This document shows, piece by piece, positions 10,323 through 60,916 of a stretch of 64,000 nucleotides of DNA. Made by a program: the position numbers and the translations under genes. Origin of the DNA: a virus; IMG/VR virus record IMGVR_UViG_3300045988_132810, positions 32,001-96,000 of that record; one strand, written 5' to 3'. Numbering within the stretch: position 1 is the stretch's first letter; every line of letters starts with the position of its first letter. The notes under the pieces are model-generated. The model made no database searches. It saw nothing but the letters and a program-made list of their open reading frames with translations, and was not told the origin of the DNA.

Positions 10323-10532
10323 TAACACAATGGCCCCTTATATTGGCGACAATATATTGAACACCGAATATGCTGGAACACCCTTAGAGCTTCACATACC
10401 AAGGCGTAATAGTTGTGGAGATTGGGCAATCAGCAGGGAGTAATGACCCTCAACGACCACCAAGGTGCTTCTCTCAGAGAAGATGGTATGGTCTAATCCC
10501 TTTTAAATACTGCGAAAGCAGGGGTATAAATG
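10323..10532 (+). ncRNA. putative ORF-less group I intron in dnaE (210 nt)
   Basis: Excision joins FNRG to HAVAYSLLSYLTAWMKVYYP in frame. The exon ends in U and the intron ends in G. Its 5' end TAACACAATGGCC resembles that of the tape-measure intron. There is a CTGC-GAAA-GCAG tetraloop hairpin at 10510-10521. P1 is weak: GUGGU/GCCCC with one mismatch. Confidence 0.7.
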
Positions 10533-11552
10533 CATGCTGTTGCTTATAGTCTGTTATCTTATCTTACCGCATGGATGAAAGTATATTATCCAGTAGAATT
10601 TATGACCGCACTTTTGACAGCGAAGTCGGACAATACTTCAAAGCTTAGTGTTATTATTACAGATTGTCATAGAATGGGAATCAAAGTACTTCCGCCTAAG
10701 ATTAATGAGTCTGAATTTTCTTTTAAGGCTAAGCCAGAGACTAAAGAAATCCTTTTTGGTTTTGGCGCAGTAAAAGGCATTGGCGAGTCAGTAATTACTA
10801 AGATTATTGAGAACCAGCCATATAGCAGCTTTGATGATTATCTGTCAAAAATCCAAGATAAAGCGGCCACAATTGCTCTAATTAAAGCTGGTGCTTTCCC
10901 TACTTCTAATAAAATGAAGCTGATGAGAAAGTATGCTACCTTATCGTATGATAAGAAAGAATATAAACCAGTTCAATCATATGGGACAAAAGCAAAATTA
11001 TTGCTAAATTGGGATATCAACGTAGATGATTACAAGGCTGGCAAAAAAGTAGATAAAGAAGCCGTGCTGCAATTGTATAATGCAAAGCGTAAAGAAAAGT
11101 TCGACCAAGTGCAAGAGGTCAAATATAAAGCGTATATGACAGAGTTCCAACAAAAATATGCTAGAGATCAATTCCTATGGGAATACGAAAGCTTATCAAT
11201 GTTTTTGACAGAGAACCCATTGCAAGAAGGTGTAGATTTAATAAACGCTAATTGGGATGATGTCCCGAATGGAGAAAAAACAGTTGTCTTGTGTGTTATA
11301 TCAGACATAAAGCGCAAGAAAGATAAAAACAACAATCCCTTCGCATATCTAGATTTGATTACTTCTGATAGAATTATTGAAGCGACTATTTGGAGTAGAC
11401 AACTAAAAGAATATTTTGATCTTATCTCGAAGGGCAAGTGCCTTGCAATTCTTGGAAGGAAAGAAGACGATCATTTGTTCGTTGAAAAAGTTAAACCCTA
11501 CACCGTTTGGCTCGAAAAAATAAAACATACACGTGCCAAAAAGACATCTTGA
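10533..11552 (+). CDS. dnaE: DNA polymerase III alpha subunit, exon 2
   Basis: Continues as HAVAYSLLSYLTAWMKVYYPVEFMTALL..., then an HhH-like segment (GFGAVKGIGES) and an OB-like C-terminus. In frame with exon 1 once 10323-10532 is removed. Confidence 0.9.
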   Translation, partial: HAVAYSLLSYLTAWMKVYYPVEFMTALLTAKSDNTSKLSVIITDCHRMGIKVLPPKINESEFSFKAKPETKEILFGFGAVKGIGESVITKIIENQPYSSFDDYLSKIQDKAATIALIKAGAFPTSNKMKLMRKYATLSYDKKEYKPVQSYGTKAKLLLNWDINVDDYKAGKKVDKEAVLQLYNAKRKEKFDQVQEVKYKAYMTEFQQKYARDQFLWEYESLSMFLTENPLQEGVDLINANWDDVPNGEKTVVLCVISDIKRKKDKNNNPFAYLDLITSDRIIEATIWSRQLKEYFDLISKGKCLAILGRKEDDHLFVEKVKPYTVWLEKIKHTRAKKTS

Positions 11553-11577
11553 CAGCACAAAATTATTGTGATATAAT
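11549..11577 (+). promoter_or_regulatory. sigma-70-type promoter with extended -10
   Basis: TTGACA, a 17-nt spacer, then TGaTATAAT. The spacer holds the palindrome CACAAAATTATTGTG. The -35 element overlaps the dnaE stop codon. Confidence 0.7.
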
Positions 11578-11610
11578 CGCATTACAAACTAGAAGAAGGA
11601 GTGATTCAAC

Positions 11611-11976
11611 ATGGATGAAAATGAAAACTATGAACAGCCAGAGAGCGTTGAAAGCGTAGAAGAAGCAGACGAGCAAGCACCGCCAGCATCTGAACTTGCA
11701 AACGACGAGCTCAAAGAAGCAATTACTACACAGATGAAGAAGGTACAGATGGCGGCTTTGCTCAGTGGCTCGAAAGCAATTTGTGGCGTTGTGCTTCAGT
11801 ACATCGCGGAGTTCAAGCGTCAACCGGGCAAGAAGTCGGCGAACGACTATAAGAGACTAATCAAGAAGATTGAACATTTTTGTTCAATTAGTCTGGGCAA
11901 GGACGTTAACGAGAATGGTGATATTGTTGATGTAAAGAAGGAAGAAGAAAACACTTCCGAACCAGAGCAGGATTAA
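11611..11976 (+). CDS. hypothetical acidic protein
   Basis: 121-aa ORF with AAGGAG upstream and very acidic termini. Confidence 0.6.
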   Translation: MDENENYEQPESVESVEEADEQAPPASELANDELKEAITTQMKKVQMAALLSGSKAICGVVLQYIAEFKRQPGKKSANDYKRLIKKIEHFCSISLGKDVNENGDIVDVKKEEENTSEPEQD

Positions 11977-12592: not shown

Positions 12593-13837
12593 TTGATTGT
12601 AACTAAGCGTGATGGACGAAAGGTAGAATTTGATAAAACAAAGATCGAGAACGCTATTTTAAAAGCACATAAAAGTATTTACCATGGAGAGAATTTTGAA
12701 GATATTCAAGATTTTGCTGCAAAAGTTGCTTTCGATATCGAGTCAAGCAATTCTGCTTCTGAACTTTCCGTTGAAGACATTCAGGATATGGTTGAACGAA
12801 AGCTAATGGCGTCTCGGTTCAAAACAACTGCCAGAGCATATGTAAATTATCGTTTCTTGCATGAAATGGCGAGAAATCAATATCAAGAGCTAATGCAGAC
12901 CGTGTCAGAAAAGCTAACAGCGAATAATATCCAAAACCAAAATGCAAATGTTGACGAAGCTTCATTTGGTGGCCGTATTGGAGAGGCGAGCGATGTTGTG
13001 ACAAGACGTTATGCTCTAGAATACCTTGTCTCACCAATGGCAAAGGCCAACCATGAGAATAATGAGGTTTACATTCATGACCTTAATGCTTATGCGGTTG
13101 GTTCTCATAACTGTCTTAGCATTCCGTTCGACGATCTGCTTGCGAATGGATTCAATACTAGACAGACGGATGTGCGTCCTGCACAAAGTATTAATACGGC
13201 ATTTCAGCTTGTTGCGGTTATCTTTCAACTTCAGAGCTTACAACAGTTTGGCGGCGTAAGTGCTACGCATTTAGACTGGACGATGGTTCCTTATGTAAGA
13301 AAGAGCTTTTATAAGCACTTTAAGGATGGGGTCAAATATTGCCTACGAGATGAATGGGACGAACATTGGGACAGCGACTTTAATGATTCTCGTCCGATTG
13401 ACTGGGATGAATATAAAAACTATCCAGAGGCATATGAGTATGCACTGGATATGACAACAAAGGAAATTTATCAGGCCGTTGAGGGAATGTACCACAATTT
13501 AAATACACTTCAAAGTCGTTCTGGAAATCAGCTCCCATTTACATCAATTAATTATGGTACTTGTACGCTTCCAGAAGGACGTATGGTAACTAAAGCACTA
13601 CTTGATGTTTCTATCAAAGGCATTGGCAAACTTCATCGCACTAGTATTTTCCCATGTGGAATCTTTCAGTGCATGAAGGGAGTAAACCGCAAGCCAGAAG
13701 ATCCGAATTATGATCTATTCCAGTTGGCTCTAAAGTCTACAAGTCTTAGACTTTATCCTAATTATGCCAATGTAGATTGGAGTAATAATGCTGGATATGA
13801 CATTAATGATCCAAGAACGTACTTCAGTACCATGGGT
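12593..13837 (+). CDS. nrdD: anaerobic ribonucleoside-triphosphate reductase, exon 1
   Basis: TTG start after GGAGGG. N-terminal ATP-cone (IVTKRDGRKVEFDKTKIENAI). The ORF reads on into non-conserved sequence after ...YFSTMG. Confidence 0.9.
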
Positions 13838-14167
13838 AAGCGTAAACTTATAGCTCATGTAAAACCTTTTGAACCTCGCCAGAGGGTGTCTAATTTAGGC
13901 TAACGGTTAGGACTCTACGAGTTGAGACCGTGCTAAGTAATTAAGAATAGATTATTTCAGGGCAATGGATGGTGATATGTGCGACAATTTATAAAATAAC
14001 TATTCTTAATTAAAAGTGTATCGACTATCCCTGATGAATGTATGGGAGTAGGGGCAGAGATTGGCGCTGCCGTTGTTTTAGGAAACGAAGCAACTGAGAA
14101 CCGAAGCGGAAGGCTATCGAAAGATAGAAGATATAGTCAGTGCAGATGGCAACATCTGATAAACACG
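13838..14167 (+). ncRNA. putative ORF-less group I intron in nrdD (330 nt)
   Basis: Excision gives YFSTMG|CRTANGYD in frame. The exon ends in U and the intron ends in G. 7-bp P1: CAUGGGU (13831-13837) pairs with GCUCAUG (13853-13859), with U.G at the splice site. S-element-like AAGATATAGTC at 14128-14138. GAAA tetraloop hairpin at 14114-14127. Perfect 13-bp stem 13938-13950 / 14000-14012. Confidence 0.85.
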
Positions 14168-15166
14168 TGTAGAACAGCAAATGGATATGACATTAATGGT
14201 TTTGGTCAGCTAAAAGACGGTAGAGGAAATATCTGCCCTGTGACAATCATTATGCCAACATTGGCAATGGAAGCAAAAGAAGCTGCTCTCAAAAATTCAG
14301 AGCCTTTTGAAGAAGATTTAGAAGGATTGGCCGTTGATAATTTCATGAAACTTTTGAATGAAAAAATCAATGAAGCAAAAGATATGCTTCTTGAACGTTT
14401 TGATTGGATTTGTTCTCAATCTCCAGAAGCGGCAAAGTTTATGTATGAAAATAATGTTATGGCTGGATATGTACCAGAAGAAGGTATTCGTTCTGCTTTA
14501 AAACATGGAACTTTAGCACTAGGCCAATTAGGTTTAGCCGAAACACTGCAAATTCTCATTGGTTGTGATCATACAGAGCCAGAGGGAATGAAATTGGCAA
14601 AGCACATTGAGCAACTATTCAAAGATAGATGTGCAGAGTTTAAGCAAGAATATCATCTCAACTTTGGTGTATATTATACACCTGCAGAGAATCTTTGTTA
14701 CACTGCTATGCAGAAATTTAAAATGAAGTATGGAGAAATTCCTAATGTGTCTGACAAAGACTTCTTTACTAATTCAATTCATGTTCCTGTTTGGAAAGAA
14801 GTAAATCCATTTGAGAAGATTGATATTGAATCACAGCTAACAGGATATTCAAATGCAGGATGCATTACTTATGTTGAATTAGACTCTGGAGCAAAAAACA
14901 ATGTTAAAGCTCTTGAAACAATTGTAAATTATGCGATGAATAAAGATATACCTTATTTTGCTTTGAATGTCCCAAACGACCAGTGTATGAACTGTGGATA
15001 TTGCGATGAAATGAACGATGTTTGCCCAATGTGCAACAGTAATGATATTAAAAGGTTGCGTCGTGTAACCGGATATTTGACAAATGATTACAAAACTGCA
15101 TTTAATAAGGGCAAGCAACAAGAAGTTGAAATGCGTGTTAAACACGACAAAATTATTAGTAGGTGA
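14168..15166 (+). CDS. nrdD: anaerobic ribonucleoside-triphosphate reductase, exon 2
   Basis: CRTANGYD...GRGNICPVTIIMPTLA, a C-terminal Cys cluster (CMNCGYCDEMNDVCPMC) and the glycyl-radical motif RRVTGYL. Confidence 0.9.
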   Translation, partial: CRTANGYDINGFGQLKDGRGNICPVTIIMPTLAMEAKEAALKNSEPFEEDLEGLAVDNFMKLLNEKINEAKDMLLERFDWICSQSPEAAKFMYENNVMAGYVPEEGIRSALKHGTLALGQLGLAETLQILIGCDHTEPEGMKLAKHIEQLFKDRCAEFKQEYHLNFGVYYTPAENLCYTAMQKFKMKYGEIPNVSDKDFFTNSIHVPVWKEVNPFEKIDIESQLTGYSNAGCITYVELDSGAKNNVKALETIVNYAMNKDIPYFALNVPNDQCMNCGYCDEMNDVCPMCNSNDIKRLRRVTGYLTNDYKTAFNKGKQQEVEMRVKHDKIISR

Positions 15167-16578: not shown

Positions 16579-17172
16579 ATGAAGAAAAAGCCACTAGGAT
16601 ATCTTGGAGGAGATATAATGAGCTTCGGCTCAAATCTTGCAAGGCAGTATGAATATGATAAGTTTCTTAAAATGGGTCTGCCTGTGGAAGTATACAGCCC
16701 TGTAATGAATAAATCTATTAATGATAAATCTAATATGACAGAAGAAGAAAACAATCACCTTGCAGAAAAGATTACAGAAGCAGATATTGACCGTCTTTGG
16801 AATAGTGATTTTGTCGTTATGTGCCCTGAACAAAGTGCAATTGGTTCAATGTGTGAGACTGGTTGCCTATTCGGTTGGAAGTATATGGCAGACAAGCTTA
16901 CAGAGATCATCACAGAATGCGAAAATAATCACGCCCCATCTGAAGGGGCACTAGCTTGTCTAAAGAGAGAAATTAATCGTATTGCCGATAAACAAAATTA
17001 TTTTCATTACTTTGATATTCGCACAAATCATCTTAATGAAAAGGATTGGCGTAGAAGTTTCAGTATTAATCAATTGCTATATGGCATGATCCTTTATGCA
17101 GCTAAAAATGGCGATTTCGAAACATTTGATGAAATATTAGAGCATTTGGAGGGATTATATGGGAACAAGTAA
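16579..17172 (+). CDS. nucleoside 2-deoxyribosyltransferase-like protein
   Basis: AAGGAGAGG upstream of ATG 16579. N-terminal GYLGGDIMSFG and DIDRLWNSDFVVMCPEQSAIGSMCETGCLFG resemble the NDT-family pattern (YxAGxxF ... DxGTxxExG) as I remember it. Confidence 0.5.
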   Translation: MKKKPLGYLGGDIMSFGSNLARQYEYDKFLKMGLPVEVYSPVMNKSINDKSNMTEEENNHLAEKITEADIDRLWNSDFVVMCPEQSAIGSMCETGCLFGWKYMADKLTEIITECENNHAPSEGALACLKREINRIADKQNYFHYFDIRTNHLNEKDWRRSFSINQLLYGMILYAAKNGDFETFDEILEHLEGLYGNK

Positions 17173-18412
17173 TATGATTTATGGAATTGGCGACAAGCCG
17201 CCGTTTGGGAAAATGATACTCTTTGGAGTACAAATGGTGTTGTCTGTGTTCGTTGCCACAGTGCTTATTGCAAACATTTGTGGAATTGCTACGTCTGGAG
17301 CACTTATAGGAGCAGCACTTTCAACTTTTATTTACATCTTTATAACTAAAGGCCAATCTCCTATGTTCCTAAGTAACAGCGGAGCCTTCGTCGCACCAGT
17401 ATTGTTTGCACTTAGTATAGGTGGTTATACTGGTATAGCAATTGGAGGTTTAACGGCATGTATTGTATATTGTATTTTGGGATTCATCTTCACTAAAATT
17501 CCATACCAATCAATTTACAAGGTGTTCCCTCCAGCTCTTATTGGCGCTGTCACAACAGTAATTGGAGTGAATCTAATGGGATTCATTTCTGGCTATGTTG
17601 GAGAAACTGGACAGTGGGGAATCGTTGTGGCACTAATTACAACATTCTCTATTGCACTTATTTCTCATTATGCTAAAGGTATTGTGAGAATACTGCCATT
17701 TTTGCTTGGTATATTAATTGGATATGCAATCGCCGTACTCCTTACAGTTACAGGAGTATGTGCCCTTGTAGACTTTTCCGTATTTAATAATCTTAAATTT
17801 GTACAAATGCCAGATTTTGCTTTTACTCATTGGGGAGCAATTGAATGGAGTACTATTATCCCTATAGCTGTTATGTTTATAGCATATACTGTGTCTGCTT
17901 GTATGGAAGCTCTTAGTGACCATGCAGCACTAGGCGGAATTATCGGAATAGATCTTTATTCAAAGCCCGGACTTGGGAGAATCTTCTTTGGTGAAGGACT
18001 AGGCAATTTAATTAGTGCATGCTTTGGCGGTCTTGGCTCATGTAGTTACGGAGAAAGTGTGGCGACGATTGGATTCAGTCGTGTAGCATCTGTATGTGTA
18101 ACAGCAACCGCAGCAGTTCTACTCGGACTACTTGGTTTTGTTGCTCCAGTTCAAGCATTTATCGCTTCAATTCCAAGCTGTGTATTTGCAGGAGCGGCTA
18201 TTATTCTTTATGGCTTTATCGCATGTTCTGGTGTTAAGATGCTACAGAAAGTAAATCTTAATGTACAGAAGAATCTGATTATAGTATCTGCAGTTTTGTC
18301 TCTTGGCATCAGTGGGCTAGTTGTTGGTGGTAAAATAATATCATTCTCTGCAACTGCACTAGCTTTGATTGTCGGCGTAATTCTTAATCTAATTCTTCGT
18401 GACAAGGAGTGA
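17159..18412 (+). CDS. nucleobase:cation symporter-2 family permease (uracil/xanthine permease-like)
   Basis: 417-aa polytopic membrane protein. Segments such as SNSGAFVAPVL and VFPPALIGAVTTVIGVNLMGF closely resemble the UraA-type SSFAFISPVL and LFPPAAMGAIVAVIGLELAGV. Confidence 0.8.
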   Translation: MGTSNMIYGIGDKPPFGKMILFGVQMVLSVFVATVLIANICGIATSGALIGAALSTFIYIFITKGQSPMFLSNSGAFVAPVLFALSIGGYTGIAIGGLTACIVYCILGFIFTKIPYQSIYKVFPPALIGAVTTVIGVNLMGFISGYVGETGQWGIVVALITTFSIALISHYAKGIVRILPFLLGILIGYAIAVLLTVTGVCALVDFSVFNNLKFVQMPDFAFTHWGAIEWSTIIPIAVMFIAYTVSACMEALSDHAALGGIIGIDLYSKPGLGRIFFGEGLGNLISACFGGLGSCSYGESVATIGFSRVASVCVTATAAVLLGLLGFVAPVQAFIASIPSCVFAGAAIILYGFIACSGVKMLQKVNLNVQKNLIIVSAVLSLGISGLVVGGKIISFSATALALIVGVILNLILRDKE

Positions 18413-18417
18413 CAAAT

Positions 18418-18966
18418 ATGCACACAATTTTCCTAATTGTTGGCAAGAGTGGGTCTGGAAAAGACTCACTCGTTAACCAGCTATGTAAAGAACATGGATA
18501 TAGACAGCTTAAATCATATGCAACCCGCGCTCGTAGAGATGGAGAGGGAGATACTCATACATTTATTACACCAGAGGAAGTAGCTCAGTATAAAGATCAA
18601 ATGGTTGCTTATACGTGCATCTCTGGTTATGAATATTTCTCAACAAAGCAGCAATTACTAGATTCAGATTTTTATGTAATCGACTATAGAGGGATCGAGT
18701 ATATGCACAATCTCTCGCTTGATCTTTCTGATGTTCGATTCGTAACTATCTATATTCACGTACCAGATGAAGTTCGTGAAGAACGAGCCATTAATGGACG
18801 AAAAGATGATGCACTAACCTTCTATAAACGTTGTTTTAATGAAAATGAACAGTTCACAGAAATGATAATGAGAGATGATTTTGATTACGCAATTTCAAAT
18901 ATTAATTTTGATAAAGCATACAAGGTTCTTAAAACAATTGTAGAGGAGGAGCTAAAAAATGATTAA
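18418..18966 (+). CDS. guanylate-kinase-like P-loop nucleotide kinase
   Basis: P-loop GKSGSGKDS, followed by SYATRARRDGEGDTHTFITPEE (compare guanylate-kinase S-TTR-PR-GE--G--Y-F). AAGGAG lies 8 nt upstream of ATG 18418. Confidence 0.65.
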   Translation: MHTIFLIVGKSGSGKDSLVNQLCKEHGYRQLKSYATRARRDGEGDTHTFITPEEVAQYKDQMVAYTCISGYEYFSTKQQLLDSDFYVIDYRGIEYMHNLSLDLSDVRFVTIYIHVPDEVREERAINGRKDDALTFYKRCFNENEQFTEMIMRDDFDYAISNINFDKAYKVLKTIVEEELKND

Positions 18967-19928: not shown

Positions 19929-21071
19929 ATGGCAAAGAAAAGAAGTAATGGGGAAGGATCGTGGACGCAAAGAGACAATGGCACTTGGAAATTGTCTGTA
20001 GCTTATAAAGGAATAGGAAGAAAATATTTTTACGGGGACAAGCAAACTTGTTTAAAGAAAAAACGTGAATTTGAAGTATTACTTAATAAAAATATCGTTG
20101 GGAATAAGGATATATTATTTGAAGATTTTATTCATTCTTGGCTTTTCACAGTCAAACAGCCAACATTGAAACCTTCATCATTTGATAGAATGGAACGTGT
20201 ATTAAAAGAAAAACATGTGACAAGATTATATAATTTAGAAATGAAACAAATAGATGGACATTTAATTCAAACTTTTATTATTAATAAAATGAAAGACGAT
20301 GGGCTCGCATATGAAACAATTAAGAAAACATGTTCTGTATTAGGAGAAATATTCAATTATGCATTACTACGAGAAAAGATTGATAGAAACCCGATGGGGG
20401 AAGTTAGACTACCAAAAAAGTCGCTATTTGTACAAAAAGAAAGAAGATATTTGTCTCAACAAGAAAGAGAAAAATTAATACAAACATGCTATTCTAGGCA
20501 TAAAAATGGAGTGCGTATTTATAAGAATGGCGCTTTGTATGTATTTTTACTATATACTGGATGCAGAGTTGGAGAAGCTTTAGCTTTAAGGTGGAGCGAC
20601 ATTGATTTTGAAACGCGTACTGCGAAAATTTATAAAACTGTCGCTCGTATCAATGACAGAAGCAAGAGTAAAAATAAGACCATTGAAATTGTATCCAATT
20701 CTACAAAAACAGGAGTCGCAAGAACTATTTATTTGTCAGACATGGCAATTGCTGCGTTAAGAGATCTGCAAGAGCAGATTGGATGGGAGCCAAACGGATA
20801 CATTGTCCATGTGAATCATACAAAACCAATTTGTAAAGTCGCTGCACAAAACACATTTGATCGTATTATTAATAGAGCAGGAATAAAGCATTGTGGAGTC
20901 CACGCACTTAGGCACTCTTTTGTGAGCTTAATGTTACACAACAATGTCCCGATAACAATGATATCTCAAATGGTTGGGCATTTAAATATAAATATGACAA
21001 TGCAGGTCTATTCTCATTTGCTAGACGAAACTAAAATTGAGTCTATGTCAATTATAAAAAACATTAAATAA
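19929..21071 (+). CDS. int: tyrosine recombinase / phage integrase
   Basis: Catalytic signature TGCRVGEALALRWSDID (Arg), HALRHSF (H-x-x-R) and VGHLNINMTMQVYSHL (His...Tyr). GGAGG upstream. Confidence 0.93.
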   Translation: MAKKRSNGEGSWTQRDNGTWKLSVAYKGIGRKYFYGDKQTCLKKKREFEVLLNKNIVGNKDILFEDFIHSWLFTVKQPTLKPSSFDRMERVLKEKHVTRLYNLEMKQIDGHLIQTFIINKMKDDGLAYETIKKTCSVLGEIFNYALLREKIDRNPMGEVRLPKKSLFVQKERRYLSQQEREKLIQTCYSRHKNGVRIYKNGALYVFLLYTGCRVGEALALRWSDIDFETRTAKIYKTVARINDRSKSKNKTIEIVSNSTKTGVARTIYLSDMAIAALRDLQEQIGWEPNGYIVHVNHTKPICKVAAQNTFDRIINRAGIKHCGVHALRHSFVSLMLHNNVPITMISQMVGHLNINMTMQVYSHLLDETKIESMSIIKNIK

Positions 21072-30053: not shown

Positions 30054-33000
30054 TTATCTAACACGATTATAAAGCTTTTTATTGATATTTTTCATATAAT
30101 TGTCCATCTGGTCTTGCACCGCCTTGGTAATGTTCTGGATGGAACTATTATCTGCTCTGTCAATATGGACAACCTCTCCGACTTGGAGGTTCAACTCAAG
30201 ATTGTTGTTAATAACATGAGGCGCACTAACAACAGGTCTAGATTGCTCTAGAACACTAGATGGATCTAGTTTGCCCCATTCCATAAGTCTTTCTGTTAGG
30301 TCTGCAGGAATAATTCCTGTTCCTTTCTTAATATAAGAAAGCCTACCTGCACCGTCTGGAACAAGCTGCAACTCTTCACCAAGCTCGTCAAGGAATGCGA
30401 ACTGGTCTTTATCAATTGATTTAGCTCCACTACTGTAACCCTCTATGTCGCTCAGACGCACCCAGCCAGTGTAGCCACCATTTCTGCCAATGAGAACTTC
30501 CGAGTCGGTTGCCTGATAAACTGTAAATGTAGATCCCGGCACCCAAGACTGCATTCTTGTTCCGTTTCCACCATCTCTAGAGAAGTGAGTCGCTGAACTC
30601 TTAACAGTTACAGATGACCCCTTAGTTGGGGCTGCTGGAGTGGATGGCTCAGTAGCTGGTGATTGCTGCGGCGTCGAAGGAGTTGGCGGAGTATACTTCG
30701 CGCTCTCAGTCGAATTCTTCTTGCTATTTGTGGCCTTAATTATGCTATCTGCGGTCTTATCAGCCTCAACTTGTAAATCTACAAGCTCTTGTTTTAATGC
30801 GCGTAATTGCTCAGTAAATGCGCTCGCAGAAGTGTCTAATTGCTCCTGATAAGTACCAATGGCATCTACGCCTTCCAGCCAAGGCTTAGTTACAGAATCA
30901 GAAAGAGTGATTCCATACTTGTCGGCTATTTCAGATAGGTTTTGTGCTAATGAATCTGTATTCGCAGCGATAACAGCATAGCTATCTTGAATGACTTGGT
31001 TCTCATTCTTAAGCGATTCATCAAGCGCATCCATTTCGTCTTGCTTGTTGTCTTGATAATTCTCAAGAGACTTGTCAAGGGCTTCTTGCTGCTTTTCAAT
31101 ACTATGGTCATAATACAGGTCGTTTAACTCGTCTTGCGCTTGCTTCAGTTCGGCTTCTAATTTTTTCTTCTGCGCAATTGCGGAAGCTGAATTGTCGCCA
31201 GAAATTACTGCAAGCCTCTTCTGAATGTCTGCAATATTCTTCTGCTGCTCGGCAACTTGCTTCGCAAAGTCATTTGCATCTTTTTGGAGGCTAAGTTCCT
31301 CTTTCTTTTTATCTATAAGCTTCGAAAGAGCGTCTATCTCCGCCTGCATAGATGTTTTGACACTTTCTATACGAGTCTTATTCAGATCAATAATAGACTT
31401 CTTCGCGGATTCTTGCGCCTCAATTGCGTCCCATTGATTCTCTTTAAGCTCGGCAAGCTTTTCGTTATACTCATCTGTGCTATAAAGCCCAGCGGAATAA
31501 TCTTTCTCCAGACGTGCAATCGCTTCGCCGTATTGCTCAACTTTAAAGTTTGCAACTTCTAGCTGCTGTGCAAGTAGACCAAGAGCAGTCACGCCATCTT
31601 TAGTCCAATTGCCAAATTCGTCTACTACTTTTTCTTCGTCAGAAACCAAGTTATACAAATGAGAAAGCTCAGAATCAACATTATCAATTTTGCTAATTAA
31701 CTTGTCAAGATTATCCCAGTAAAGGTCATTAATACTATTCTGGAAGCCTTCGATATCTTTCTTACATGAAAGGATTGAGTCGTCAACGTCATAAATGGCG
31801 TTAACCATTTCGTACCAATCATCAGTTCCAACTCTAACATCTCCAGAAGCGACAGCTTGATCTAGGATACTTTGTAGTGAAGCACGCTTATTATTTAGGT
31901 CTTCAATTTGCTTCTGAGAGTCTTTCATTAATTCCTTATAGAAGTTTTCAGAAAGTCTTTCTCCCGCTTCGTCAAGAAGATCCATCTCGGCCTGAATGAG
32001 GTTTGAGTGCTGTTCGACTAAACCAACAATATTCTCAAAGTCATCCGCAATATCATTTAGCTGTTCAAGACGTTTAGCGGAAATTTCAGCAATAGATTCT
32101 AGATAGCTATTCTCTGCATCTTCTGCTTTTGTAGACCATGTACGATATTCTTCAATGGCATCAGCAATTTCGCCTTCGCTTTCCCCGATAAAGTCTTTAA
32201 TTGCGATAGCGCCGTTCTTTGCCATTTCTTGATACTCGGCGGGAACTTTAGACAGTAGCTCCGTTGCCTTCTGGTTGTAAAGCTCTGCTGCAGCAAAATA
32301 TGTAGATGCTTTCTGTTTTTCTGCTCCGACTAAGTCATCATATAAGCTGTTCTTATCTCCAATTTGAGAAGTATCGTCAAGGAAATTCTCAATTCTATTG
32401 GTCATATGAGTAATTGCCTTCTCGATTTCTTCAAGCTTATATTCAATAAAGTCAATGGTTTGCTCTGCATCATCGGCTGCGTCAGATACATCACTTGCCG
32501 CATCAGATAGGTCACTAGCAGCATCACTTAAGTCCCAACCCATTTGAGACCAGTCTTTGTCACTGCCATCTCCCCACGCAGCATTCGCTCCAGTGTCAGT
32601 TTTCTTTGTATAAGTACCATAATTCCAGTGAGCATTGCCTTTAGCAAACGACAAGCCGCCAGTGTATGTCCCACGAGACGTGTACCCATTCTTTAATAAC
32701 TCTTCTGTCTGCTTGTGGTTATAGATTATTGCACCCTTCGGCAAATCAAGCATTTCCGTGCCATGTTCTCCAACAGTATAATAAACGCCCTTGTTTGCGT
32801 CTACTACTAGTTCACGACCAAGCTCGCCTACAATGGCATTGTGCTCATTTGCTTTTAATCCGGGCTTCTTGCCTGAATGCGCATTGCCTTTTGCCAAAGC
32901 ATTTCCAAGCGCACTAGACGCACCGTCAGGATTATAGCCACTTCCGCTTTTTGCATCTTCACGACCTTGTGTAAATTTACTCTTCAGGTTGTTCCAAAAA

Positions 33001-37850: not shown

Positions 37851-38163
37851 CGATCTATTACTTTCCCACGAAAACCAAATGGTACTGACCGATTATGTAA
37901 TCGGCGGCAAGGTCTTTCGGCCTTGCTCTACGATTTTATTTTTAGATTATTGTCGTAGTCTAGACTGGATCTTCACCCTCATTCCCGTCATTATACGGAG
38001 TAGGGGAACAGCGGAACCTGTTATGTTACCATAAAAGGTCTTACAGTCGTTACGGATACTTTGCACACTGCAAAGTCTTTCCTCGGTCTTGACCATCTCT
38101 GGCTTTTAACCGATATAGCTGTTTTCTTTCAATATATTACTATATTGTTAGGCTATTATGTTA
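37851..38163 (-). ncRNA. putative ORF-less group I intron in the tape-measure gene (313 nt)
   Basis: Excision gives ...VVQNPESVG|TAMKTLSLRIRG in frame. The exon ends in U and the intron ends in G. 5-bp P1 UAGGU/GCCUA with U.G at the splice site. The 3' end AGTAATAGATCG|ACAGC nearly matches that of the CotH-gene intron. Confidence 0.8.
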
Positions 38164-41100: not shown

Positions 41101-42840
41101 GCCAGTAAAATCAATTGTTTTAACAACGCCATCTGCAATGATACCATTAATTTTTGTGCCTTGGTCATAAAACAACTTGGTAAATGAATTAATATCCGAC
41201 GGCGTAAATGCACTCATTCCATCTGGGTGATTGTGCAAAGACATTACGATATTTTCTTTTAGATTGTTGACAAGTTGTGATACTATTGCGTCTGTATCTA
41301 CCTGAAAATCCTTCCCAGAAAAAGAACTTACCACTTTGTCCGCGCCAAAAAGCGTCATAGACTCTTTTGCGTCGCCGCTACCTTTTGAATAACCAACCTC
41401 TTGCCCCGACGCAACATTTAATAATTCTTGTAGCTCGCCAGTTACACCGCTAACTTCTTTTGCGCTTTTTTGTGCAGCCGTAGGAATTTCAACATTAAGT
41501 AGCTCACAGATTTTAGAAAGTGCTTCGGCTCCGGTAATGTCTCCAAAGTCTAAATCTGAAAAGATCTGTTCAATTGCAGTCCCTGCCTCTTTAGACGCCT
41601 GAGAAACTTCTTTAATTTCATCGACAAGTGCCATTAACTTCTCTTCGTTTTGGGCCCCTTCGTCTGTCCCTGACAATAACGAGACATATTCTTTAACTCT
41701 TTTATTTAACTCATCATATAAAGAAATCTTTTTTTCTTCCGAAGTTCCATTTTCTTTTTCTACAAAATCATCTGGATTTTCAATGTTTTTAAGGTTGTCT
41801 ATTTCTAAATTAATATCTGCAATTTTTTGCTTATACTCGCTCTTTATCTTTTCAAGCGTAGCATTCTGCTTTGCTCTAAACTCTTCTAAAAACTCTTCGG
41901 CCCTATCATATTCTCTAGAATTTGCAGCATATGCCGTAGCGTCATCGCTACCATGCTCGAACACATAATCCATTGTGCTCTTTAACTGGCTTGCTGCCTT
42001 TATTTTTCTTACAAAAGCTTCTTCTTTCCCTGACTTGCCAGTTCTCTCTAATTCCGCAAGTTCTTGCTCTGCTTTTTTAAAATCTTCAACAAGGCCAGCT
42101 AGAACAGTAGTATCATTTTTCTTTGTTGTTTTTACTCTTTTGTCTTTGCCATTAAAAATGTCTAATGCTTCTTGATATCTTGCCTTTTGTTTTTCCAGTT
42201 CATCAATTTGTCGTTGAACTTCTTCGGAAATTTTATTACCTGCATCTTTGATATCGCTAGACACTTCATCCCCAGCAGACTTGATATTATCTCCAACTTT
42301 AGATAAATCAATCTCGCCAAATGCGATATTTAATTTACCATTTAACTCGCTGGCATATTGGATTAATGCATTAAACTGTTCTTCAACACTTTTAGTGTTA
42401 AAAAGGTCTAAGTCAATTTGTTTATCAATGCCAACGTTCTTGAGGATTGTATTTAATTGCTCTGCGTAGCTCAGTAATTCTTTCGTCGCACCTTTGTCTT
42501 TTAAATTAACACCACTAAGCCCAGTAAAAACGTTTTTAGACAACTCTGAAATCTGAGACATCTGTTCAACCATTTTATCAAAAGACTTCATATATCCGCT
42601 ATTAAGCTTATCTCCAAGACCTGCTTTGACGGAATCCAAATCTTTCCTAAGTGCCTTAACAGCATCGTCCATAGCGACAAACTGCTTAATAAAATTATTA
42701 AGATTTCCACGCTTGCCAATGTTTGCTAAAACTCCATCCACCTGTTCAGCTTGAGTCTTACATGCAACAAGGCTACTCATAAGATCATCAATACTATATT
42801 TAATTTTCGAAGTATAACTCGCTTCTGCCAAAAGAATCAC
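38164..42840 (-). CDS. tail tape-measure protein, exon 1
   Basis: 1559 aa, mostly coiled coil. Ends with the first half of the tape-measure core (...FAISSSGIGQALLRSASAMAEAGNTLDESIGLITAANSVVQNPESVG). Has an embedded JAB/MPN-like motif HNHPDGMSAFTPSD. Confidence 0.85.
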
Positions 42841-51666: not shown

Positions 51667-52311
51667 TTATTTAATCTTAACTGCAGACAAGCGGATTGCC
51701 TCTGCCTTAGTTGCTGCAGTGTACTGATGATAAGTTTCATATTTAATGGTAGTTTGTTCTGTCAATTCTACTATTGTAGCAACAACAGCACCACCACCGC
51801 CAATCATATCACTTCTCACAATACAATAAACAACACTATCATCAGATTTAGTTAATCTAGAAATATACATACATCCAGTGCCATTTACTTCCCATTGATG
51901 ATTACCAACAATTGCATAAGTACCTGCTGGCAACGTTAAAGATGCAATCGTTGTCATCTCCATTTTTGCGACAGATTTACTGTTTGGCGTAGCAGAATAC
52001 ACTTTCCCAATATTGCCAATATTAGTTAATATACCATTAACAGTACTTGCCCCAGTACCACCTTTAGATATTGGTAAGATTCCACTTGTGATATCTAACG
52101 CAGAATGCTTATGAGATGTAGTAGCATAATCAGAATGAGTATGACTTATCAGTGCGTACTCAGTATGCACATGACTTAAATTTGCTTTGCCTGTTTGTAA
52201 AGATGAAATGTCCGATTCAATATCTTCCAAATTGTTAGTCAAACAGGAATTCATATCAGTATCTATCCAAATATTGTTACTCGAATACATAGGGTCAAAT
52301 GTTCCATCCAT
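51667..52311 (-). CDS. tail fibre tip paralogue 3 (HxH-repeat type)
   Basis: Shares the N-terminus MDGTFDPMYSSNNIWIDT...LQTGKAN with the two upstream genes. Three HxH motifs (HVHTEY, HTHSDY, HKHSA). Divergent C-terminus. Confidence 0.7.
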   Translation of the reverse strand: MDGTFDPMYSSNNIWIDTDMNSCLTNNLEDIESDISSLQTGKANLSHVHTEYALISHTHSDYATTSHKHSALDITSGILPISKGGTGASTVNGILTNIGNIGKVYSATPNSKSVAKMEMTTIASLTLPAGTYAIVGNHQWEVNGTGCMYISRLTKSDDSVVYCIVRSDMIGGGGAVVATIVELTEQTTIKYETYHQYTAATKAEAIRLSAVKIK

Positions 52312-52329
52312 GTTGCATACCTCCTAACG

Positions 52330-52977
52330 TTACTTCCATCTACCTATGGCATAGACATCAATATAGAATGGAATGTTGGAACCACCATCAGAACCAATGG
52401 CAGTCCAATTAAATTTAGTTGTTGTGGATAATGCACCACGTGCGGCAATTGCATACCCAGAACCTATATAACAATTATATTGAACACTTGGATTAGCAAT
52501 AAATAATCCAGTCGGCCAATCCGCGCTGCCTGTGAACACATTAAATCCATTCCATGTTGTATAGTGAGTAATATGTCCAGAATCTTGCCGCCAACACTCA
52601 GACATTCCGCTATTCCATTTTCTGTATGTCCATTCTCCAGAAGGGCCAGAAGCTACAACATAATCAGATGGTTCAATTAACCCAGAAATTTGAGACTTAT
52701 TGTGAGTATGAGAACTCACAGCGAAATCACTTGCATGTTTACCATCTAACGTATCTGCATTACCACCATTCGCTGGAAGAGAAGTTGGAATAACTGGTAT
52801 AGATGGCTTGTCAGTTAAATCGTTATAGCTATGAATATGATCTGAGTTTGCCTTGCCAGTTTGTAATGCGTCAATATCAGACTCCATGCCCTCAAGATGT
52901 GTCGTAAGACATCTATCCGCATAAATGTCCATAAAAATGTTGTTTGAACTATACATAGGATCAAATTCACCGTTCAT
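52330..52977 (-). CDS. tail fibre tip paralogue 2
   Basis: MNGEFDPMYSSNNIFMD...LQTGKAN...LPANGGNADTLDGKHASDF. The C-terminus ...AIGRWK resembles that of paralogue 1. Confidence 0.7.
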   Translation of the reverse strand: MNGEFDPMYSSNNIFMDIYADRCLTTHLEGMESDIDALQTGKANSDHIHSYNDLTDKPSIPVIPTSLPANGGNADTLDGKHASDFAVSSHTHNKSQISGLIEPSDYVVASGPSGEWTYRKWNSGMSECWRQDSGHITHYTTWNGFNVFTGSADWPTGLFIANPSVQYNCYIGSGYAIAARGALSTTTKFNWTAIGSDGGSNIPFYIDVYAIGRWK

Positions 52978-52994
52978 ATAGAAGCCCCCTTATA

Positions 52995-53639
52995 TTATTT
53001 CCATTTCCCAATAACGTGAATAGAAACGTACCCACCAGAAACAGTTGTAGAGTATGGGCACCAAATACGATATACCATTTTACTCTTAATAGCACTGGCA
53101 ACTTGAAAATTCAAATATGCTGAACCATATATATTTCCAACCGCCGTTGGGATATCAATAAACAACCCATTTGGGAAATTTACAATACGGCCATTATATA
53201 ATGAATTAGACCAAACACCACTTATCATTGACGTAGTTAAAGGTATCTCTCCAAGAACTTCATAATACCACGCTTCTGACACACCACTTTTCCATTTTCG
53301 ATAAGTCAAGTTTCCAGATGTGCCTTTATCAACCACAATATCTGCAGTTCCATTAACTAAAGTTTGAAGTGTAGACACAGAACTTGCTGTAGCAAAACTA
53401 TTAGCATGCTTCCCGTCAACTGTATCTGCATTGCCTCCGTTTGCTGGAAGTGTAGTCGGAATTGTTGGCTTGCCTGTTAAATTATTATAGCTGTGAGTAT
53501 GATTTACATCTGCTTTATTGGATTGCAGAGAAGAAACATCTCCTTCAATGCCCTCTAAATGAGTTGTAAGACATTCATTTAGATTTGTATCCATCCAAAT
53601 CTGATTGGAGCTATATGTTGGATCAAATGTACCGTTCAT
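52995..53639 (-). CDS. tail fibre tip paralogue 1
   Basis: MNGTFDPTYSSNQIWMD...LQSNKAD...LPANGGNADTVDGKHANSF. C-terminus ...VIGKWK. Confidence 0.7.
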   Translation of the reverse strand: MNGTFDPTYSSNQIWMDTNLNECLTTHLEGIEGDVSSLQSNKADVNHTHSYNNLTGKPTIPTTLPANGGNADTVDGKHANSFATASSVSTLQTLVNGTADIVVDKGTSGNLTYRKWKSGVSEAWYYEVLGEIPLTTSMISGVWSNSLYNGRIVNFPNGLFIDIPTAVGNIYGSAYLNFQVASAIKSKMVYRIWCPYSTTVSGGYVSIHVIGKWK

Positions 53640-56867: not shown

Positions 56868-56875
56868 GTTATTAA

Positions 56876-57640: not shown

Positions 57641-60600
57641 TTAAATAGAAATACATGGACAAATACCATGAGCTCTGTTAGATGGCATATAGCTACTCAT
57701 ATCACCCTGAATGCCAACCGCTCTAAAGTAAGAATTGTACGCCACTTCTGGTGAACGTAGATAATATATGCTCGCAGTATCCCCAATAGACTTAACTCTA
57801 TCTGCAGATGAACCAAAGAATTCAATTGCTTTACCTTCGGAGCTATATGGCGCTTCGGATGTGTTAAACATTTCCACATACGACGGTAGATATACATAGT
57901 CTTTTGAATAAACAATATCAGATGCCATATTACCAGCGGTTGCAGGAATCTGCACTTGCTTAATAATTGATTTCCACTCTGTTGGGAAAGCCGCATAAAC
58001 TCTACTATTACAGAACGCTCTCATTTTAGAGTCATTCCATCCGCCAAGGTTGGTGTTCGTAGAATTCATATTGTGAGTGAGAGATAGCAAATTCGCCGGA
58101 ATGAACGAAGCTCCAGTAATTTTACTAGAATCTTGCGCACATCTATATCTCTTATCACCATAATATTCATAGCGCCAAGTTTCATGCGGCCATGCAGCAA
58201 GCTGTCTAGCCGCAGTGTCTCCAATATCATCAAGCCATACTTTGGCCCAGTGAATTGTGCCCTTACCTAGCGTTACGCTATCAATTGTTCCATTTGACAG
58301 GAACTTAAATCCACCAAGCATAATTGTCGCCTCAGTATTAGTTGTACGATTGCGCACAAGCTCTGTATAAGCCATTTCGTCAGCATAAACACCAGTTGTA
58401 GAAGCTCCAGAGTTAAACGAGTAGATATAAAGTTTACTTTCTCCCTTGCGGTGACGAAGCACAACGATATCTCTTTGGCCTCCTTTGCCTACTACTTTAC
58501 TAGTATTTCCCCACTGGATTTCTGGATTTGTACCATTATACTTTAGTCTAAATCCTTCAGAGCCATCATATTCAAAGCAAGACAATAGCGTAGCATCAGC
58601 GATATTGTCGCCAAACTCAAAATCTATAGCCATTGTAAATGAACCAGAATCTGCGCCAAATAGCTTAACGCCAGAATCTACTACTTTTGAGGAAGTGCCA
58701 TCAAAAGTAATTTCATCTCCAAGCATATGTTCTTCAACATTTGAGAACGAGAAATCCTGCCCAACACGGACGTCAAAATAGTCTTTCTGCTCGAAATAAT
58801 CATTTGCTCTCCCAGCAGTTGTTACGGCATAAATCTGTACTGGAGTCATATCTTTCAAGTCAGTTCCAGATGCTGGGAGCCCATTTTGTGTCTCCCACTT
58901 AGCATAGACGTCAGTATCTCCAGTGATATAGCCTGTGCTCTTATCCCAGCCAGTGAATAGATTATAAATATAAGAATCCTCATTATCGCTCATAGTTGGG
59001 TTGTCGCCTTCATATTCCGCAACAGCACCATATTCTACGCCAGTTTTAGTCGCAAGAACAACGCCTGCTTGCTGGAACCAACGCACAGTATATGTTCTTA
59101 CTGACTCGCTATATTTTGCTGTCACAGTTACAGGAGCAGTAACATTCACATCAATGCCATCCCAGCCAGAGAAGGTATAATTGTACTGTGCGGTACTTGG
59201 AATTGTCGGAGTGTCAATTTCACCACTTGCGACAGGATCAGTAATCTTGCCGCCTTGGTCAACATACTGAACATAATCATTGCCACTCTTGTCTTTAATA
59301 GCAGTACCATCGGAATTCATAAACGTCACTTTATACTGAGTAATAATACCATTATAAGTGACAGCTAAATCAGGCCATGCTGCCGCATAAGCATCGAGTT
59401 CTCTCTGCCTTGCTTGGCCAGCAATATGAACCTTACCAGCAAGTAAATTGTTATTCATCTTCAAAATAGCATTTAACAATTCAGTGCTTGTCACAGTCCA
59501 GTCAATGCCAGTTAAACGAAGTGTCTGCAACGTGTCAATTGCATCCTCAACAATTGGATAAGCATCAATTACAGAGTTCTCAATAGTTAACGATTCAAGA
59601 TTGTCATATGTCGCCTGTAAATCGGTTAAGTAATTTAGATTCTTAAAGCTTAAGCTATTGATTGTATTTGGTAAGTGAGCAAGTGCAATCTTACCATTTG
59701 CCGCGAATAGCACACCAGTTACAGATGTCCCCTCTGCATAAAGCTTCTCTAAGTTGCCACAGCTTGACAGATTGATCGATCCAGTCAATTTAGGGCAATT
59801 ACGAATGTCAAGTTCTTCAAGTAACGCATTGTTGCCAAGGTTTAGATTGGTTAAGAATGCATTAGAATAACCAGAAGTTTTATTGCCAATTACAAGCGTC
59901 TTAAGCTTTGAAGCCTTACTAAAATCATTATCGTGAATATAGCAAGCAGAAAGATCATTCAATGCCTGAATGCGAGAAGCACAATAAATTAGTACTGCCG
60001 TATCATCCATCTTGGTAAATGGACATTGAATTTCATAAGATTGTCCTGCCTTTGCACGAATCTGCTGTGCACTTGGAGAGTTGCCAAATAGCACAGACAG
60101 ATACATATCTGAATAAGGCACAATGTTTAGAGTGTAATTAGGTGCAACAACTACACCAGAAGGAGTATTGCATCTAAACATAATTTGATCTGCCTTGACA
60201 GTTGTAGACAGATATTTCGTTCCCATATAAGCCGCTTGGTCACGTTCAAATTGTCTACGCTGATATTTCTTACGACCATTCATCATAGACTCTAAGAAAC
60301 GAGGCGTTGGCTCTGGAGTTGCACCAGCATTGAGGCCACCACCTTGATATGTCCTGTAATACTTACGCTCAATATCAAGTCTCCAAAGCTCTTCTGGGAA
60401 TTGTGCTTGCCAATTGTCAAATTCATTAATTAGAGATGTTGCACTAAAGCAACCTTCTCCTTCAAGAGTTTGATACATTACTGCAAGCTCATCGTGGAAT
60501 AAATCACGTATCCTACACCAAAATACATTGTCTGCTGCATTAAATATATAACCCGAAGATTTATCGCCTTCGGTGCGATAGTCAGTGTCTTCCTTGCCAT

Positions 60601-60643
60601 ATGTCATGGTAAGCTCGCCACTGTTGTTAATTCCAAGGGCTGT
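57641..60643 (-). CDS. giant CotH-domain / LRR / B-repeat / LamG-like protein, exon 2
   Basis: Begins TALGINNSGELTMTYGKEDTD, completing the CotH WDYD..G motif. Followed by leucine-rich repeats (LEELDIRNCPKLTGSINLSSCGNLEKLYAEGTSVT...), B-type repeats (YKVTFMNSDG..., YTFSGWDG...) and a LamG-like segment. Confidence 0.85.
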   Translation of the reverse strand, partial: TALGINNSGELTMTYGKEDTDYRTEGDKSSGYIFNAADNVFWCRIRDLFHDELAVMYQTLEGEGCFSATSLINEFDNWQAQFPEELWRLDIERKYYRTYQGGGLNAGATPEPTPRFLESMMNGRKKYQRRQFERDQAAYMGTKYLSTTVKADQIMFRCNTPSGVVVAPNYTLNIVPYSDMYLSVLFGNSPSAQQIRAKAGQSYEIQCPFTKMDDTAVLIYCASRIQALNDLSACYIHDNDFSKASKLKTLVIGNKTSGYSNAFLTNLNLGNNALLEELDIRNCPKLTGSINLSSCGNLEKLYAEGTSVTGVLFAANGKIALAHLPNTINSLSFKNLNYLTDLQATYDNLESLTIENSVIDAYPIVEDAIDTLQTLRLTGIDWTVTSTELLNAILKMNNNLLAGKVHIAGQARQRELDAYAAAWPDLAVTYNGIITQYKVTFMNSDGTAIKDKSGNDYVQYVDQGGKITDPVASGEIDTPTIPSTAQYNYTFSGWDGIDVNVTAPVTVTAKYSESVRTYTVRWFQQAGVVLATKTGVEYGAVAEYEGDNPTMSDNEDSYIYNLFTGWDKSTGYITGDTDVYAKWETQNGLPASGTDLKDMTPVQIYAVTTAGRANDYFEQKDYFDVRVGQDFSFSNVEEHMLGDEITFDGTSSKVVDSGVKLFGADSGSFTMAIDFEFGDNIADATLLSCFEYDGSEGFRLKYNGTNPEIQWGNTSKVVGKGGQRDIVVLRHRKGESKLYIYSFNSGASTTGVYADEMAYTELVRNRTTNTEATIMLGGFKFLSNGTIDSVTLGKGTIHWAKVWLDDIGDTAARQLAAWPHETWRYEYYGDKRYRCAQDSSKITGASFIPANLLSLTHNMNSTNTNLGGWNDSKMRAFCNSRVYAAFPTEWKSIIKQVQIPATAGNMASDIVYSKDYVYLPSYVEMFNTSEAPYSSEGKAIEFFGSSADRVKSIGDTASIYYLRSPEVAYNSYFRAVGIQGDMSSYMPSNRAHGICPCISI

Positions 60644-60916
60644 CGATCTGTTACTATATAGGCTTGGCCCTATATTATGACTTACATTTCTGTAAGCGGA
60701 GCAGGTTCTTCTTTAAGCGGTCTGATTACCGTTGACCCACTCTCTGCAATTTCATTATTAGATTATAGTTGCAGTCCAGACTGTTGCATACTTCATAACT
60801 CGCGTCACAAAGCCCTTTGTACTCAGTCGTTGCAGGCGGAAAATTTCCTTCCTGAGCGTTGCCAATCTCTTGGTTTTCGCCATTAATCAACAAAGGTTTT
60901 ACAACGACAAAATTTT
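60644..60916 (-). ncRNA. putative ORF-less group I intron in the CotH-like gene (273 nt)
   Basis: Excision gives FELWDYDND|TALGINNSG in frame. The exon ends in U and the intron ends in G. 6-bp P1 AACGAU/GUCGUU with U.G at the splice site and an 8-nt loop. It shares a hairpin and its 3' end with the tape-measure intron. Confidence 0.8.

Follow-up and report, generated by a model that had tools for sequence, protein, structure and literature searches.

Four predicted group I introns, apparently of three lineages, in a 64,000-nt stretch of phage DNA

Four genes on a 64,000-nucleotide (nt) stretch of DNA from an uncultivated phage (positions 32,001 to 96,000 of the IMG/VR record IMGVR_UViG_3300045988_132810, hereafter the window, to which all positions refer) are interrupted by short insertions that, with a probability of about 90%, are self-splicing group I ribozymes, i.e., optional mobile elements that stem from a pool shared among phages and belong to three lineages. 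The window contains 60 open reading frames (ORFs) of at least 100 amino acids (aa), and four adjacent same-strand pairs of these ORFs constitute the halves of interrupted genes, namely those for DnaE, for the anaerobic ribonucleotide reductase NrdD, for a tape-measure protein (TMP) and for a giant CotH-like protein (Table 1). An earlier description of this DNA, termed the sequence-only reading here, had proposed that the four introns form one family that spread within the genome; the fourth of them, not named there, is the nrdD intron.

The exact junctions are given by intron-less alleles of all four genes in related metagenomic phage contigs, which join at the predicted points. With an arrow marking the junction, FNRG↓HAVAYS in DnaE is colinear with 18 intron-less relatives, while intron-less alleles read STMG↓CRTANG for nrdD, PESVG↓TAMKT for TMP and WDYDND↓T[ASG]LGINN for the CotH-like gene. 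Splicing in silico restores Pfam domains or yields domains that span the junction. DnaE is split between its finger and HhH domains and the NRDD domain is split into 2-268 and 262-562. The PhageMin_Tail domain of TMP is cut at position 132 of 201 and restored to 5-200 of 201 upon splicing, with the score rising from 51.9 to 81.6 bits, and the CotH domain becomes detectable only once the two halves are joined. In addition, homologues with entries in PDB align gap-free over the junction in the case of DnaE (AEYSFNRG↓HAVAYS, compared with solved structures of Pol III alpha) and of NrdD (STMG↓CRT, compared with solved structures including PDB 8p23).

The insertions themselves carry the features of group I introns. 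A U as the last nucleotide of exon 1 and a G as the last nucleotide of the intron are found in all four, and in P1 the splice-site U lies opposite a G in each case, with GGU↓ facing GCC in dnaE, CAUGGGU↓ facing GCUCAUG in nrdD, UAGGU↓ facing GCCUA in TMP and UAACGAU↓ facing GUCGUUG in the CotH-like gene. Helices P3 to P9 follow in canonical order with the P3/P7 pseudoknot in all four introns, and every proposed helix is complementary. The guanosine pocket in P7, a G-C pair beside a bulged nucleotide, is present in all four introns; it is formed by A-[C bulge]-GACUG and CAGUC-U in the TMP and CotH introns, and P7 pairs GACCA with UGGUC in dnaE and GACUAU with AUAGUC in nrdD. In the dnaE and nrdD introns, P3 to P9 are supported solely by complementarity, by alignment to the Rfam model RF00028 and by annotated introns that are homologous to them. 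Most helices, including those of the TMP intron, reappear upon unconstrained minimum-energy folding, with z values relative to shuffled sequences of -4.51 for TMP, -2.58 for CotH, -2.22 for nrdD and -0.83 for dnaE. Hairpins between the 5' strand of P7 and the 3' strand of P3 (P7.1/P7.2), which mark subgroup IA (T4-type), are present in the TMP intron (one, with a GUAA loop) and in the nrdD intron (at least three), and absent from the CotH and dnaE introns.

Several points weigh against this interpretation. A search of the whole window with Rfam returned nothing at the gathering score (50 bits for RF00028) or at E-value thresholds. When short stretches were searched with RF00028, weak but correctly placed matches emerged for dnaE (24.6 bits, E 1.6e-4, with a helix assignment identical to the proposed one), nrdD (17.9 bits) and CotH (15.8 bits, over exactly the span 60644-60916), while the TMP intron gave no match, so that even the best score lies below gathering level. 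The single RF00028 model is insensitive to phage introns of the IA type, and the sub-threshold scores are therefore read as a limit of the model and not as an exclusion. The dnaE intron folds no better than shuffled sequence, and the case for its structure is built on complementarity, on the alignment to RF00028 and on an annotated intron that is homologous to it. Furthermore, splicing of the four introns is a prediction from sequence, the assignment to lineages is based on pairwise similarity rather than phylogeny, and the endonuclease assignment of ORFs carried by related introns is weak: one of them has a NUMOD-like domain that, at 25 bits, misses the cut-off of 27, and the other ORF has no Pfam match.

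The missing match at the Rfam gathering threshold could also be taken to mean that the gaps are not introns and that the genes are truly split, decayed or mis-assembled. This is hardly credible, since conserved motifs are restored by exact, in-frame junctions, a complete group I fold with covariation is present, the identical dnaE intron occurs in six independent contigs, and the TMP intron is identical in four contigs and present as a one-base variant in a fifth.

Covariation was studied for the TMP and CotH introns, starting from sequence blocks that the sequence-only reading had pointed out and that were all located again. The shared 3' end including five exon nucleotides, a 17-mer (AGTAAYAGATCGACAGC), occurs only at 37846-37862 (-) and 60639-60655 (-) (chance expectation 0.00), and the 5' end common to the dnaE and TMP introns, a 13-mer (TAACAYAATRGCC), has no sites other than 10323-10335 (+) and 38151-38163 (-) (expected 0.02). 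The box AATATATTGAA is present in the dnaE and TMP introns at 10351-10361 and 38128-38138, and taken alone it is weak (expected 0.19; 2 hits were reached in 2 of 100 shuffles). The box AACGACTG, present in the TMP and CotH introns at 38044-38051 and 60824-60831, is not significant alone (expected 1.13; 4 hits, two of them in unrelated coding sites). CAGTCT[AG]GACT, with starts at 37967 and 60783, precedes both hairpins, and the hairpin stems (CUACGA/UCGUAG in TMP and CUGCAA/UUGCAG in CotH) differ by two double-sided changes. The blocks shared by the TMP and CotH introns map to equivalent elements, i.e., the 5' and 3' strands of P7, P9 and the 3' tail. The conserved helix that had been postulated from the two hairpins is a genuine P9, for which 12 stems were found in 26 sequences.

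These sequences derive from IMG/VR viral contigs that were scanned with the P9 loop as a pattern, giving 149 hits over all sequences; hits with the P7 3'-strand motif at a fixed upstream distance all have a 6-bp stem. In the alignment of the 26 distinct sequences, from which one sequence with a bulged stem was omitted, 97.4% of the cells are paired, and the covariation score amounts to 0.765 as compared with 0.164 for shuffled alignments (0 of 500 shuffles as high). Pairing drops to 14-58% when the 3' partner is slid by 1-3 columns. A covariance model of P7-P8-P9 built from nine sequences gathered 33 distinct family members, among which 96% of the cells pair, 18 of 21 pairs show double-sided changes and the second P7 pair, a G-C, is retained in 32, counts that are biased towards structure because the alignment was fitted to the model. 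Six orthologous introns at the CotH site, aligned with MAFFT after excision of ORF-bearing P6 loops, have 97% pairing cells and compensatory changes in 21 of 73 pairs; by helix, these include 5 of 7 pairs in P3, which forms the pseudoknot with P7, 3 of 4 in P5 and 6 of 9 in P8. For the TMP/CotH subfamily, the whole predicted fold is supported by these alignments.

The subfamily is marked by the 6-bp P9 stem, a nearly invariant 19-nt loop (xxAUAAUCUAAWAAURAAA) and a tail of the type AGUAAYAGAUYG. The loop is near-constant while the stem changes freely, an invariance that is in part a product of the way the sequences were found, i.e., by a loop search. The loop could represent a new module for a tertiary contact or for protein binding. 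In three of four subfamily introns, AUCU of the loop and AGAU of the 3' tail are complementary and could form a tertiary pairing. In TMP genes, subfamily members occupy three or more sites that lie within some 110 codons, and in CotH-like genes they occupy a conserved site, the latter also in diverged homologues from other phages (L244 and L269). Dozens of metagenomic phage contigs contain this tail-gene-associated subfamily, and members also reside in 24 contigs of bacterial genomes or metagenome-assembled genomes, mostly from Bacillota. BLAST of introns of the TMP/CotH type against isolated phages returned short P4-P5 matches only, and in the literature no paper was found that ties phage CotH-like genes to group I introns. 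It is conceivable, albeit doubtful, that the TMP and CotH introns constitute a subfamily of group I introns in phages which has not been described so far, is not detected by Rfam and is characterized by the invariant 19-nt P9 loop. Two subfamily members lie 0.3-1.8 kb apart in other phage contigs (4721-4836 and 5049-5155 in L242, 9594-9705 and 11169-11256 in L235, 4943-5049 and 6708-6829 in L172), i.e., clustering of subfamily introns recurs.

In relatives, further TMP introns of this subfamily are inserted at two other sites, termed A and B, which are located 108 and 49 codons upstream of the site used in the window. At site A, between residues 51 and 52 of the 300-aa query, the intron comprises 1189 nt and includes a 305-aa ORF (L001, 1397-2585), the C-terminus of which looks PD-(D/E)xK nuclease-like by eye. 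At site B, between residues 110 and 111 of the same query, it comprises 475 nt (L127, 1678-2152; L130, 1026-1500) with an AU-rich remnant in P6. A 277-aa ORF is present in P6 of the CotH intron in three relatives (L002, L003 and L008); it is this ORF that has the NUMOD-like domain, whereas the 305-aa ORF is the one without a Pfam match.

With regard to the relationship among the four introns, the proposal of a single family stood in part. In local alignments, TMP and CotH introns are clearly kin (z 9.6), while z is 3.2 for dnaE and TMP and does not exceed 2.1 for any other pair; a four-way MAFFT alignment was structurally meaningless. The TMP and CotH introns match those at TMP sites A and B with z values from 3.7 (CotH with site B) to 19.9 (TMP with site B), the TMP intron reaching 14.6 and 19.9 with the two extra TMP-site introns. 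The P7-P8-P9 covariance model assigns 100 bits to the CotH intron and 44-48 bits (E about 1e-6) to the TMP intron, but 15.3 bits (E 0.65) and thus noise level to dnaE, and it misses the nrdD intron as well as those of phages JSE and 0305phi8-36. The dnaE and nrdD introns are closer to introns from outside the window (z about 19), so that the four are not each other's closest relatives; only the TMP-CotH pair qualifies.

Three lineages are suggested by these comparisons. The TMP and CotH introns would form a lineage in which the P1 guide has adapted to several tail-gene sites and whose relatives carry endonuclease-like ORFs in P6. The nrdD intron would represent another, having site and core in common with the nrdD intron of the Escherichia coli phage JSE (EU863408), its closest match (z 19.6; local alignment with shuffle controls). 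JSE is T4-like and its intron, which is of the T4 sunY/nrdD type, is inserted at the identical site, i.e., after ATGGGT (..MG) and before TGTAGA (CR..). P7, P7.1, P8 (CUAUCGAAAGAUAG) and the element AAGAUAUAGUC are common to both introns, with 81% identity over the 3' core. Unlike the JSE intron, the copy in the window has no endonuclease ORF and contains a 13-bp AU-rich stem with a 49-nt loop at the position assigned to P6, and its host is a Bacillota-type phage. A GYDIN(D/G) motif is found on either side of the nrdD junction (13793-13810 and 14183-14200, +). It was considered as a target-site duplication and ruled out, being native to the protein and present in intron-less alleles.

The dnaE intron would belong to a third lineage together with the dnaE intron of Bacillus phage 0305phi8-36 and the nrdD intron of the Lak-B1 megaphage. 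Its closest match is the annotated mobile intron in the Pol III alpha gene of 0305phi8-36 (ORF240/ORF036; z 19.4, local alignment with shuffle controls), which has a very similar P6-P7-P8-P9 core, and it is 66.5% identical over 194 nt to the intron in the C-terminal part of Lak-B1 nrdD, a likeness that includes the P1-P2 module. It also shows partial matches, over about 50 nt, to introns located at the terminase in phage Moonbeam and in Staphylococcus phages. The insertion sites differ from that in the window, lying at PPD↓IDVDF in 0305phi8-36 dnaE and in the nrdD C-terminus in Lak-B1, and the 0305phi8-36 intron contains an ORF, unlike the dnaE intron studied here. One relative of the dnaE gene (L317, around 1950) diverges right after FNRGH, and the dnaE match of Alicyclobacillus phage KKP_3916 falls into two pieces that span about 400 extra nt; both may carry further introns near the same dnaE site.

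In the dnaE and TMP introns, the shared 5' end corresponds to the P1 strand contributed by the intron and to the adjoining P2, a 7-bp helix with a GNRA loop that spans positions 17-34 in either case. The AAUAUAUUGAA box maps to this P2, its register being offset by 3 nt from one intron to the other. Since the same P1-P2 module occurs in the Lak-B1 relative, it is regarded as a deeper lineage trait and not as a sign of recent exchange, and the possibility that the dnaE intron borrowed it from a TMP intron was rejected. Both P2 helices use the same 7-mers, CAAUAUA and UAUAUUG, with strands swapped, and both 7-mers derive from the palindrome CAAUAUAUUG; the swap may reflect slippage of the helix register. 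The exon pentamer ACAGC shared by TMP and CotH is not conserved, as other intron-bearing CotH alleles read ACCGC or ACAGG. P10 pairing was rejected as the reason for it, because the pentamer varies and no complementary segment was read in either intron.

That all four introns arose from one element multiplied in this genome by transposing to new sites appears very improbable. In favour of such an origin, TMP and CotH introns are evidently related, all four introns contain core boxes that are generic for group I, such as AACGAC with its partner strand, dnaE and TMP share the 13-nt 5' end and an equally placed P2, and UGUAAAACCUUU is common to the nrdD and CotH introns. On the other hand, the dnaE and nrdD introns are each far closer to introns in distant phages, the JSE nrdD intron sits at the identical site, the subfamily model recovers neither of the two, and the P1-P2 module is not confined to this genome. 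Moreover, near-identical phages carry or lack each intron independently of the others, which argues for exchange within a phage population rather than for duplication in one genome. Additional subfamily members exist in relatives, but no convincing fifth intron was found in the window: the subfamily model with filters off gave hits at noise level only, and Rfam had no hits in the larger intergenic gaps. One of these hits (11850-11931, +; 16 bits, E 0.47) has P7- and P8-like pairings and lies inside an apparently normal 121-aa ORF (11611-11976); it is probably due to chance.

Derivation of the four introns from a phage-shared pool in three lineages is in line with their distribution. Presence/absence polymorphism at a fixed site was observed for all four sites among near-identical contigs; contigs 118701, 110231 and 100349 contain the TMP intron together with an intron-less CotH gene, and contig 118692 contains the dnaE intron together with an intron-less nrdD gene. 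As the sequence-only reading had stated, none of the four introns has an ORF (longest stop-free stretch at most 74 aa), and the copies in the window thus lack the endonuclease-like ORFs seen in relatives of the CotH and TMP introns. Alleles with and without an intron differ in the exon sequence beside the splice site, and the splice-site U or the P1 pairing is missing from many intron-less alleles at the CotH, dnaE and nrdD sites. Both co-conversion in the course of homing and the requirements of P1 pairing are compatible with these flanking exon differences. A 325-aa ORF for a LAGLIDADG-type endonuclease (7040-8017, +; LAGLIDADG_2, 6.5e-17) is located directly upstream of dnaE and overlaps its start; it looks like a free-standing homing endonuclease gene and not like part of an intron. 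The likely start of dnaE is the ATG at 8004, giving the N-terminus MSFVNLHVHS.

Taking the established group I mechanism as a basis, P1 would form between the guide near the 5' end of each intron and the final 3-7 nucleotides of the exon, with the splice-site U opposite G. Free guanosine would then dock in the P7 pocket and attack the 5' splice site, after which the terminal G of the intron would take over the pocket and the exons would be ligated. Intact DnaE, NrdD, TMP and CotH-like frames would be restored by this reaction. A stop codon at or near the start of each intron would keep ribosomes off the ribozyme on unspliced RNA. In the dnaE and TMP introns an in-frame TAA follows directly after GGT, in agreement with the sequence-only reading, and the first in-frame stop is reached after 5 codons in the CotH intron and after 21 in the nrdD intron.

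The idea had been put forward that regulated splicing acts as a timing gate for the production of TMP and the CotH-like protein. The placement of two introns in virion genes and the stop at the boundary, which would lead to truncated products from unspliced RNA, are circumstantial hints in this direction. Yet many close relatives are intron-less with intact genes, making the introns dispensable, in-frame stops at intron starts are general in bacterial and phage group I introns (PMC2504315), and no regulatory element was found. Such a timing gate is very unlikely; no evidence for gating of virion protein production by splicing emerged, and the idea is pure speculation. Likewise, the claim that four introns in 64 kb, two of them in virion genes, are unusual was not upheld, as several introns per phage genome have been documented (PMC11878797) and introns in TMP genes as well as in-frame stops at intron starts have also been described (PMC2504315).

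Table 1. Positions of the interrupted genes, their introns and the assigned intron helices
Feature	Position	Strand	Remarks
dnaE exon 1	7995-10322	+	PHP, polymerase core and finger domains (Pfam)
dnaE intron	10323-10532	+	210 nt
dnaE intron, P1 guide	10331-10335	+	
dnaE intron, P2	10339-10356	+	GCGA loop
dnaE intron, P7 5' strand	10453-10459	+	
dnaE intron, P8	10468-10482	+	
dnaE intron, P7 3' strand	10489-10494	+	
dnaE intron, P9	10498-10524	+	
dnaE exon 2	10533-11552	+	HhH and OB domains (Pfam); PDB alignment continuous over junction
nrdD exon 1	12593-13837	+	NRDD (Pfam); PDB
nrdD intron	13838-14167	+	330 nt
nrdD intron, P1 guide	13853-13859	+	
nrdD intron, P7 5' strand	14021-14028	+	
nrdD intron, extra hairpins between P7 and P3 3' strand	14029-14094	+	
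nrdD intron, P8	14114-14127	+	CUAUC-GAAA-GAUAG
nrdD intron, P7 3' strand	14133-14139	+	within AAGAUAUAGUC
nrdD intron, P9	about 14142-14159	+	
nrdD exon 2	14168-15166	+	includes glycyl-radical domain; NRDD (Pfam); PDB
TMP exon 1	38164-42840	-	1559 codons
TMP intron	38163-37851	-	313 nt
TMP intron, P1 guide	38155-38149	-	
TMP intron, P2	38147-38130	-	GUAA loop
TMP intron, P3	38123-38118 with 38012-38007	-	
TMP intron, P4-P5	38113-38083	-	GAGA loop
TMP intron, P6	38082-38054	-	
TMP intron, P7	38050-38044 with 37967-37962	-	
TMP intron, P7.1	38039-38016	-	GUAA loop
TMP intron, P8	38005-37976	-	
TMP intron, P9	37958-37928	-	loop 37952-37934
TMP intron, 3' tail	37862-37851	-	AGUAAUAGAUCG
TMP exon 2	30054-37850	-	spliced protein about 4158 aa
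CotH-like gene exon 1	60917-64000	-	runs off window
CotH intron	60916-60644	-	273 nt; no P2
CotH intron, P1 guide	60908-60902	-	
CotH intron, P3	60896-60890 with 60820-60814	-	
CotH intron, P4-P5	60881-60855	-	GAGA loop
CotH intron, P6	60854-60833	-	
CotH intron, P7	60830-60824 with 60783-60778	-	
CotH intron, P8	60812-60791	-	GCGA loop
CotH intron, P9	60774-60744	-	loop 60768-60750
CotH intron, 3' tail	60655-60644	-	AGUAACAGAUCG
CotH-like gene exon 2	57641-60643	-	C-terminal DUF6273 (Pfam)

Megablast of 20 kb against isolated phages gave no match, and by DnaE the nearest isolated phage is Clostridium phage Amboise with 51% identity. Elsewhere in the window, a protein of the xanthine/uracil permease family (5e-50) adjoins a guanylate-kinase-like protein at 17159-18966 (+), and the nucleotide-metabolism block of that region also includes nrdD/nrdG, a 5'-nucleotidase (NT5C) and a dUTPase-like ORF. 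An integrase is encoded at 19929-21071. Three tandem ORFs of about 214 aa each at 51667-53639 (-), namely 51667-52311, 52330-52977 and 52995-53639, have no family match and may be paralogues.

Because the introns score below the Rfam threshold, automatic annotation would call split or truncated DnaE, NrdD, TMP and CotH-like genes; the coordinates given in Table 1 repair all four. The window offers a compact case of a phage that draws optional introns from three lineages, and the TMP/CotH subfamily is good material for studying retargeting through P1 and the role of the strictly conserved P9 loop.

Group I introns are a well-known mobile element of phages, and no new kind of system is encountered here. 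Phage T4 contains three homologous group I introns (td, nrdB and nrdD), and the genome of Twort likewise has multiple introns. For the Bastillevirinae, 45 introns in 37 genes have been reported, with six introns in two genes of the single Siophivirus genome listed in a table (PMC11878797). All of these resemble the window in that one genome carries several group I introns, the cores of which are partly homologous. The target genes reported in these cases encode DNA polymerase, terminase, thymidylate synthase and ribonucleotide reductase, whereas two of the four targets in the window are tail or virion genes. A parallel in this respect is provided by prophages of the Bacillus cereus group, in which TMP-IVS1, IVS2 and IVS3 reside at three sites of TMP genes, and related introns, many of which start with or soon contain an in-frame stop, have been retargeted through P1 (Tourasse and Kolsto, 2008; PMC2504315). 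Several sites per TMP gene, retargeting through P1, ORF-less copies, stops at or near the intron start and polymorphism among related phages are shared with the subfamily found in the window. The phage group differs, however, no sequence match to the prophage introns was found, though no comparison aimed at one was made, and here the subfamily extends to a CotH-like gene and has a distinctive, invariant P9 loop. The novelty is modest and lies in this CotH-like host gene and in a widespread subfamily with a strictly conserved P9 loop that escapes detection by Rfam.

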